Shown here: piece after piece, positions 59,301-60,868 of the stretch
How positions within the stretch are numbered: the stretch's first letter is position 1
Layout of the letters: the number at the start of each line of letters is the position of its first letter
Assembly: GCF_032062105.1 (NCBI RefSeq)
Contig: NW_026921546.1
Location: 62,001-126,000, forward strand
DNA length: 64,000 nucleotides
Source: Saccostrea cucullata
Lineage: Eukaryota
Direction of reading: 5' to 3'
The notes under the pieces: model-generated
Databases searched by the model: none
What the model was told of the DNA's origin: nothing
Seen by the model: the letters and a program-made list of their open reading frames with translations, nothing else
Translations under genes and position numbers: made by a program

Positions 59301-60868
59301 AATATACAAGACATTGTAAGGGCACCCATTATTGATTTTGTTGACACATTGATTAAACTATTGATTGTTTTCTTCTTTTACAGATAATTAATATACAAGA
59401 CATTTTAAGAGCACCAACTATTGAGGAAATGAAAGATGTGTATCCTTTCAATAGAATAATATTTGATTAGATTCTTTTTATTTGGTATTTTTCCTTGATT
59501 TTCTTTGATTGTTGAGAGCATTTGCCTAAATTTCAAAATGTCTGTAAAGTAAATAATCGAGGTGTAAGTGTATAATGAGAAATGAAAATCCAATAAATAC
59601 TGTCTTTCTAATTCATGATCACCTAACTCAAGCTTTTCCTCCGTATCATTCCATTTTTCCCGATCATGACAAGGAGCACATGGTGGGTGTGATTGGTCGA
59701 CACCTTTGATGTTTCGGGTGTCCGTATTTGCTCTGCTCCTACTTTTTTTGTGTTATGGACTTTTGATCTTGAATTCTGTTTGTTATCTTCACAAGTTTCC
59801 TTATGAGAGTTTAGATATATAGTACAATGTTTGATGGAGACAGACATGTACAAACTTCTAAAGACTCAACAGCTGAGTAACGATCACGTCTGCTACTTCC
59901 TGTACCAGATATTACGAGGTCTCAAATACATACACTCTGCTAATGTCCTTCACCGTGACCTCAAACCCAGCAATCTCCTCCTCAACACGACGTGTGACCT
60001 AAAGGTAAGAAACGGGTCCTCAACATGTGATCTTTAAGGTCCTCAACACAAGTGACCTTAGGTAGGTACCAGGTGCTCAACACAAGTGAACTTAGGTAGG
60101 TACCAGGTCCTCAACATGACATGTGACCTAAAGTACTGAGACATCAAAACAACATGACTTAAATTCCTAAATCATGTGACCCAATGGTACTGTGTGTACT
60201 AAGTCTTAATCACAACATGTAAATTCAAAATAAATACCTAGTCCTTCTCAACTAAATATCAAGAACAGATAAGATAAAGGTGAAGCAATTTAACTTCAGG
60301 GCTATGACATGTGACCTTGGTTGTCAATCTTGTTCTCAAGGTGACACTGACATAAAGATTAGTCCAGTTTCCTCCACAACACTTGAACTGAGCACTGGTC
60401 AATCAGAAAATACTGTATACAGGGTTATTTTCGCCCTTTCAATCCAGCAAGCAATTTTGCCCCATTTTAAATTTGCCCAGTCACACTTTTGTTTAAGATT
60501 TTATTGTATTCTTTGAATTCGTCCCGTTTTTAATTCGCCCAGACGAGGTAAGGGTGAAAGGGGCGAAAATAAAATGGGGGTGAAAATTTCCCTGTATACA
60601 GTAAGCATAATATTTAGAAAGTTCCAGTTGTAAAAGAGAATCTGCAAAATATTTTAAAAAAAATAAAAAATAAAAAAAATAATTGTTTGATGTTTTGTCA
60701 GTGTTAGAAAATTTATTTGAGACCTTGTGTTGTAGATTTGTGATTTTGGGTTGGCTCGAGTTGCTGATCCTAATCATGACCACACAGGGTTTTTGACTGA
60801 GTATGTAGCCACACGATGGTACAGAGCTCCCGAGATCATGCTCAACTCGAAGGGATACACCAAGTCAA
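56369..60868 (+). CDS. MAPK1: Extracellular signal-regulated kinase ERK1/2 (first five coding exons; gene continues beyond the window)
   Basis: Exons 56369-56487, 57342-57468, 59384-59439, 59815-60004, 60736-60868. [88 protein letters not shown]. Confidence 0.97.
56860..57100 (+). mobile_element. Two degenerate tRNA-derived SINE-like heads
   Basis: A-box/B-box-like remnants (CAGCTTGGAGCA..GGGTTGAAATCC; CTCAATTGGTAAAGAACC..GGGTACAAATTTC); no intact cloverleaf. Confidence 0.35.
57487..57989. mobile_element. hAT-like MITE starting 19 nt into ERK intron 2
   Basis: TIR CAGTCTTCACGAAAAC / GTTTTCGTGAAGACTG; flanks TACTAT / CACTAT (6 bp, 1 mismatch); GGCCAGT subterminal repeats. Confidence 0.8.
59440..59814 (+). 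other. U12-type (minor spliceosome) GT-AG intron in ERK
   Basis: 5' splice site GTATCCTTT; branch-site-like TTTCCTTAT 59796-59804 with the A 11 nt before the 3' end; no polypyrimidine tract; interrupts MKDV|YIVQ. Confidence 0.85.
59640..59802 (+). mobile_element. Penelope-like (Naiad) 3' tail inside the U12 intron
   Basis: TTTCCCGATCATGACAAGGAGCACATGGTGGGTGTG...TTTGCTCTGCTCC...TTATGGACTTTTGATCTTGAAT.CTGTT.GTTATCT. Confidence 0.88.
60411..60603. mobile_element. TACTGTA..TACAGTA MITE (TA TSD)
   Basis: TACTGTATACAGGG.TATTTTCGCCC / GGGTGAAAATTTCCCTGTATACAGTA; internal TTCGCCC repeats. Confidence 0.85.

Follow-up and report, generated by a model that had tools for sequence, protein, structure and literature searches.

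Splice signals derived from transposons are known for ordinary exons, and the branch sites of U12-type introns rank among the least tolerant intron signals. How minor introns alter their signals without breaking is, to our knowledge, poorly documented. A retroelement giving branch-point and splice signals has been described for BLOC1S2, where MIR/AluSp sequences make a new alternative exon (PMC6822395), and the minor intron present in mouse Mapk1 combines a GT-type U12 donor with a suboptimal, U2-assisted branch site, GACCTTAAC (PMC8848931). The consensus of U12 donors is RTATCCTTT (PMC8848931), the pairing region of U12 snRNA reads GUAAGGA (PMC3201867), and the optimum distance between branch point and acceptor is 11-13 nt, with either consensus A being able to branch (PMC3584512). 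Among Penelope-like elements, the Naiad clade is characterized by the motifs CxC, GxKF/Y and DKA and by a CX2-5CxxC finger (PMC8557442, section 6). PAc Poseidon, an anole Penelope-like element, cleaves ATT, and its reverse transcription begins at a site without homology to the target (PMC11167929).

The ERK gene of Saccostrea cucullata analysed here touches all of these systems. Its minor-type intron resembles that of mouse Mapk1 in its GT-type U12 donor and its suboptimal branch site, but the mouse site has both purines, whereas the predicted site in ERK, TTTCCTTAT, is one purine short and apparently half element-derived (PMC8848931). As in BLOC1S2, branch-point and splice signals would stem from a retroelement; instead of a new alternative exon, however, a constitutive minor-intron signal would have been cut and regenerated in place (PMC6822395). 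A literature search covering titles and abstract openings yielded no U12 branch site built by an element, which leaves such an absence unproven. The preferred reading, to which we assign a probability of about 0.6, is that a Naiad element inserted into a pre-existing branch site at CC^TT and that its TTTC-N tail, with N being C, regenerated the displaced half. If true, a retroelement landing in and regenerating the U12 branch site of a conserved kinase would be a concrete route of signal change, although the weight of the case is limited: it is one locus, reconstructed from sequence, and no recurrence was found.

A minor-type intron in an ERK gene

The window, by which the whole stretch of 64,000 nt is meant, encodes an ERK-type (MAPK1/3-type) MAP kinase, as judged by a domain search and by tblastn with the ERK of locus L072. 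On the forward strand, an upstream exon (59384-59439), identified by a spliced contig piece of run X1 and by tblastn, is followed by a GT-AG intron of 375 nt (59440-59814) and by a downstream exon (59815-60004) that matches Pkinase and is covered by spliced contigs. The intron starts with GTATCCTTT (59440-59448) and ends with TTTAG, the AG being at 59814. Its removal restores the reading frame, and the joint 59439>59815 is present in contigs of runs X1 and X19. X19 is RNA on record; X1 is guessed to be DNA, yet its contigs cover exons only. The donor is a perfect match to RTATCCTTT (PMC8848931) and is in use in the spliced contigs. Because of this donor, the intron probably depends on U12. Three U12 snRNA genes above the Rfam cut-off are present in the genome of 1.17 Gb, in keeping with a minor spliceosome.

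Of the 33 metagenome ERK loci inspected (80 in total), 17 have an intron at this codon, and in five of these 17 distant animal loci a U12-type branch motif is found 9-16 nt before the AG. Since same-position introns occur at such distance and five have a U12-type branch motif, the intron and a branch site would most likely be older than the Naiad insertion. The remaining same-position introns, in 12 metagenome loci (L076-L078, L081, L083-L085, L088, L091-L093, and L095), show no U12-like branch motif ahead of their AG and have perhaps been converted to the major type. The minor intron of mouse Mapk1 is presumably the positional orthologue of the intron described here. No second ERK copy or haplotig was found in the species' own genome.

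The acceptor and the first part of the ERK exon are tandemly duplicated with 85% identity (59242-59335 and 59332-59424), a region also covered by contigs of run X7. The upstream copy, 59242-59335, has no donor like that of the real ERK exon and could be a pseudo-exon or an alternative acceptor.

A Naiad fragment in the intron

The 3' part of the intron is occupied by a 5'-truncated fragment of a Naiad 3' UTR (59649-59800). It is 152 nt long, corresponds to the 3' end of the element, and lies on the sense strand of ERK. A start at 59640 had been given in the first-pass annotation, but the alignment to family copies begins only at about 59649. The fragment is about 13% diverged, has lost about 35 nt internally, at 59699-59701, belongs to the older subfamily with a GTTTCA tail, and is preceded by 200 nt of single-copy sequence. 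A match of its tail in 26 of 32 ungapped positions to a copy at 38300-38331, noted earlier, was correct. That copy is part of a group of decayed, nested Naiad copies on the minus strand (38298-43700), which served as local reference and contains an RT-bearing frame at 42201-43331. The same group contains a 320-nt tandem duplication at 38930-39567 with 99.7% identity.

The 3' UTRs of full-length Naiad copies represent the same repeat as 59649-59800, preceded by an open frame of 1,027 codons. From the first Met, the frame specifies 1,024 aa, the same length as in an oyster in PMC8557442. It carries an N-terminal GIY-YIG together with CxC, GPKY, DKA, and YIDD. In the protein of locus L205, a GIY-YIG endonuclease at residues 156-244 (E 7.9e-05) is located N-terminal to the reverse transcriptase in a single ORF, the match to RVT_1 at 770-875 (E 0.003) being below the cut-off. 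CSC, GPKY (GLKY in one), and DKA are present in all 12 Naiad loci examined, and a CSVRNCKTC finger upstream of GIY-YIG in all 11 that reach the N-terminus. As expected for partial tandems (pLTR), a Naiad 3' end precedes the ORF in 8/8 copies inspected, in five of them as a long pLTR. Within the window, no hammerhead was among the five Rfam matches at E<=1, and nothing else relevant was detected by Rfam. On structural grounds, the intron repeat is classified as a Naiad Penelope-like element. The N-terminal GIY-YIG, the Cx4CxxC finger, CxC, GxKY, DKA, and RT all recall the clade as described, as do partial tandems, heavy 5' truncation and the lack of a hammerhead match in the window (PMC8557442). 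There, however, (TA)n targets are reported, whereas the empty sites found here end sharply before TT/NT, and the section on Naiad in that paper does not describe insertion into a splice signal as proposed here.

An 18-nt word of the Naiad end occurs at least 9,239 times in the genome. Young full-length copies end with CCATATCCTT, and the subfamily recognized by this end in the first-pass annotation is indeed real and the dominant one, with at least 5,371 exact 17-mer matches. In CATATCCTTC, the resemblance to U12 signals noted earlier is to the donor RTATCCTTT and not to the branch site. The young autonomous end, ATATCCTT(C/A), is present in at least 5,371 copies and agrees in 8/9 letters with the U12 donor of AT-AC introns; such ends also occur in the window at 462 and 22808 and in loci L205-L216. 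In tandem Naiad units, the end is followed by TTTTAACC and, immediately ahead of the first ATG, by an AC; together these form a stretch that looks like a branch site and an acceptor. On G000:C13832 and C23005, Naiad ends are spaced by about 1.87 kb in a tandem array with Naiad fragments.

The predicted branch site and its pairing with U12

Against the genome's own U12 snRNA, the top pairing site of the ERK intron is TTTCCTTAT at 59796-59804, with a duplex of -9.4 kcal/mol; the values for 59491 and 59620 are -8.7 and -7.2 kcal/mol. Sequence and duplex thus confirm both the intron start GTATCCTTT and the best branch candidate named in the first-pass annotation. The only A of TTTCCTTAT, A59803, lies 12 nt from the intron end, within the optimum of 11-13 nt (PMC3584512), with a purine-rich GAGAG and no polypyrimidine tract in between. 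The fit to a U12 branch site claimed before therefore holds for position but only in part for TTCCTTRAY: TTCCTTA agrees, the last two positions differ, and the site is one purine short. In addition, A59803 is paired in the computed duplex instead of being bulged. Because of both properties, the pairing geometry is atypical, and A59803 as branch nucleotide is a prediction. Unlike the ERK site, TCCTTGAC is found in two other minor-type introns of the genome. Minor-type introns with GTATCCTTT and TCCTTGAC were seen in other kinase genes, at L038-L040 (about 2809-3056), three nearly identical loci that each lie on a contig of their own, and at L045 (minus strand, from about 2870).

A perfect branch consensus, TTCCTTGAT, is located at 59491-59499, but at 316 nt from the acceptor it is too distant for the reported U12 spacing. 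It lies 50 nt past the donor and is followed by an AG about 17 nt later. A TCCTTGAT motif near 59491 is retained in a contig of run X7, and use of this consensus was not seen in the contigs examined.

Considering the number of Naiad ends and the non-consensus nature of TTTCCTTAT, the overlap of the element with this motif could be due to chance, branching taking place elsewhere, possibly with the help of U2. A C at the position equivalent to 59800 is present in 18 of 985 ends anyway, and no second case was found among 54 candidate frames. Nevertheless, this explanation is considered quite unlikely, as the donor is perfect, the best duplex of the intron is placed exactly at the optimal distance, and no better candidate is present within 170 nt of the acceptor.

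The element probably stops at position 59800

The right junction was placed from Naiad copies inside other repeats, for which the empty site could be read from paralogues. The resulting 17 rows are a modest sample, with about four doubtful alignments (L057, L292, L308, and L346) and several cases of Naiad in Naiad, and many of the copies had been fetched by a pattern fixing ATT. With position 0 denoting the equivalent of 59800, copy and target are identical at positions -6 to -1 in 7, 1, 1, 8, 9, and 1 of 17 rows, at position 0 in 3, and at positions +1 to +6 in 11, 16, 12, 14, 16, and 17. Where copy and target agree at -2, -3, and -6, T residues face AT-rich DNA. Insertions of the family therefore end sharply at the equivalent of 59800, with a target that preferably starts with TT or NT (TT at +1/+2 in 9/17, T at +2 in 15/17). 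Because the copies in these rows stop there, TTTCC (59796-59800) would belong to the element and TTAT (59801-59804) and what follows to the host. By this junction rule, and with no family signal past TT, the stretch 59801-59814, up to and including the acceptor AG, appears to be the right flank of the host. TTTCCTT had been taken before as the final 7 nt of the element; only five of these letters remain, the TT at 59801-59802 being host-side or shared. Cleavage and initiation observed in vitro for PAc Poseidon offer an analogy, as that element also prefers a TT-containing site (ATT) and has a fixed internal start of reverse transcription without target homology, although it belongs to another clade with a C-terminal endonuclease and a hammerhead, and splicing is no aspect of that case (PMC11167929).

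Priming by microhomology to the existing branch site had been offered as one of two explanations in the first-pass annotation. Because copy and target agree so rarely from -5 to 0 (1, 1, 8, 9, 1, and 3 of 17), long target homology does not appear to be a habit of the family, and neither does such priming; at the ERK site itself it may still have occurred.

C at 59800 is not the family letter. Of the exact tails counted, 910 have A at the equivalent base, 18 have C, and 57 have G or T, the 18 including the ERK copy and some duplicates, and raw reads of run X21 show A in 225 of 242. A possible older subfamily with C as its junction base was also considered and is unsupported, C being the rarest letter. 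Variation at the junction base exceeds that at an internal one, with A>T in 31/984 versus T>A in 0/174 (counted by hand in the rows listed), and in 64 short-tail copies it reads T 43, A 14, C 4, and G 3 times. A natural end with A, TTTCATTATG (L241), gives a duplex of only -4.7 kcal/mol, so that C instead of A at 59800 doubles the predicted pairing with U12.

In the ERK copy, four of the last 12 element positions deviate from the family letters (P = 0.059 for a divergence of 13%), and the junction could be further upstream than 59800. The host branch site would then have stayed intact, a Naiad having joined 1-12 nt upstream of the equivalent of 59800 via TTTC pairing or after 3' truncation, C59800 would be a host base, and CAAG at 59792-59795 would perhaps be original host sequence too. 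No rescue mutation and no fitness valley are required here, and 59629-59640 in the left flank can be aligned to 59792-59801 if a single gap of 2 nt is allowed. That similarity is ordinary, as 27 of 169 other copies equal it, and junctions are sharp at the equivalent of 59800. Moreover, L377 retained the A of the element where the target has C, L060 and L298 carry a C that did not come from the target, and the TTCC at the left junction is not predicted. All in all, this arrangement is regarded as unlikely. A long decayed target-site duplication, with CAAG..TTTCCT on both sides, was rejected on the same count, 27 of 169 other copies scoring as high.

The left junction may hold the displaced half

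A cut at CC^TT within a branch site implies that the left flank should end with TCC or TTCC, and in the ERK intron this is the case in two alternative ways. At the 5' truncation point, the Naiad alignment starts with TTCC (59649-59652), which may belong to the element or may represent the old branch site's host half, acting as 5' microhomology. The host left flank next to it, TCCGTATCA (59640-59648), matches TCC plus 59801-59806 in 7/9 positions without gaps. It may consist of TCC and a decayed 6-nt target duplication of 59801-59806, and would then represent a displaced branch-site copy that has since decayed.

For comparison, 215 other distinct Naiad copies were evaluated. One starts with TTCC; a TTCC^ reading of any kind is possible in six, a TCC^ reading of any kind in 22, a TCC^ with a duplication of at least 5 nt in two, and both kinds in one. 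The ERK copy passes every test, and depending on strictness the chance level of such a fit is 0.5% to 10%. Against the preferred reading, the loosest test fits 22/215 other copies, and TTCC is the element's own sequence at that place as well. Across the family, no excess of target duplications was found, either short or long (59 copies for the long ones). At the single empty sites of L060, L256, and L017, the left flank extends 5-6 nt past the cut. The idea that the element rebuilt a branch site, contained in the first-pass annotation, is supported to this extent: the element covers five of the nine letters of the single U12 branch-site candidate at a suitable distance, and the left junction appears to hold the displaced half.

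The same annotation also allowed that the element had supplied the site de novo. In that event, an old branch point elsewhere would have been displaced, and the tail together with host TTAT would have made a new U12 site. A possible old site is CACCTAAC (59620-59627), a U2-like or weak U12 branch motif with the second-best U12 duplex, whose CCTRAC (59622-59627) lay about 30-36 nt from the acceptor before the insertion. In favour of this, CTRAC is retained in both X7 contigs, which have A>G at 59625, the R position, and the branch site of mouse Mapk1, GACCTTAAC, is suboptimal and U2-assisted (PMC8848931). Yet 30-36 nt is far off the optimum of 11-13 nt (PMC3584512), one of the X7 contigs has three further changes just upstream, and TTCC or TCC at the left junction would be a coincidence. 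Because the same ERK intron has U12-type branch sites in 5/17 distant loci, supply de novo is the less likely origin, and we consider it improbable.

A possible course of events

According to the preferred reading, insertion into an existing site, the sequence before insertion would have been TCC^TTAT, the acceptor following its A at a distance of 12 nt. The endonuclease would have nicked CC^TT within this branch site, and reverse transcription would have added a Naiad ending with TTTC-N, by which the old left half would have been displaced at least 150 nt upstream. With N reading C, TTTCCTTAT would have been recreated at the right distance. The C at 59800 could be an error made at the junction base when the element inserted, a later point mutation, or the product of conversion from an empty allele. 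U12 snRNA would now pair across the junction of element and host, with A59803 as the branching nucleotide. The intron is still spliced at its usual ends, 59440 and 59814, despite the insertion.

A difficulty of this scheme is that pairing would have been poor in any allele whose base 59800 was A, and that C accounts for less than 2% of ends; the event would therefore be rare a priori. A weak, U2-assisted site as in mouse Mapk1 might let an A-bearing allele survive (PMC8848931).

Because Naiad cuts before TT and ends with TTC and an error-prone base, its ends could be self-healing for branch sites of minor introns: insertion into TTCC^TTRAY would restore the U12 signal immediately, and the intronic site under the strongest constraint would become a tolerated target. 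The young subfamily has, in addition, scattered more than 5,000 ATATCCTT mimics of U12 donors, so that Naiads may seed minor introns in this lineage or remodel them. This generalization is decidedly doubtful.

Occurrence of the insertion and search for further cases

In a second organism, B (run X7), two contigs pass from the host flank into Naiad at the same place. One X7 contig spans 59776-59988, with tail, branch region, and exon, with seven differences, five of them listed in the exon. The insertion is common to both organisms and is no assembly artefact. No empty allele was detected in X7, where both left-junction contigs enter the element, or in X21 at a depth of 1-2 reads. Among metagenome contigs, no close outgroup was found, exon identity ranging from 66 to 82% among the 33 loci that were inspected out of 80, and the fetched flanks contained no donor.

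Further cases were searched in two sets. The first consisted of 24 tails reading TTCCTTRAY and 17 other TTTCCTT tails; 20 were followed by a frame of at least 25 aa after a nearby AG/AC, and 17 were scanned after removal of two duplicates and one inverted Naiad. The second was based on a spacing pattern with 112 matches, from which 70 loci were fetched, representing 67 distinct sites, and 37 frames were scanned. Matches to Pfam were obtained for 0/17 and 0/37 frames, while ERK did match, such scans being blind to short or unnamed exons and to distant donors. In the second set, an upstream RTATCCTT was present in the flank of 5/67 sites, a left flank with TTCC in 1/67, and both in 0/67. Of the proposal that the Naiad tail is pre-adapted to U12 signals, the resemblance remains, but a second exonic case was not among the 17 and 37 candidate frames. 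If the ends are put at tens of thousands, the U12 sites at some hundreds, and the TT sites at about 2.6e8, a rough estimate gives well under one branch-site insertion per genome, and a single case therefore requires no targeting.

Further features of the window

Apart from ERK and Naiad, the window contains an intronless frame for a rhodopsin-family GPCR (7tm_1) at 36590-37813 on the plus strand and an exon of a class C GPCR (7tm_3, NCD3G) at 550-1935 on the minus strand. A tandem array with units of about 147 nt extends from 61671 to 64000, and smaller tandem repeats are located at 12812-13034 and 48213-48541.
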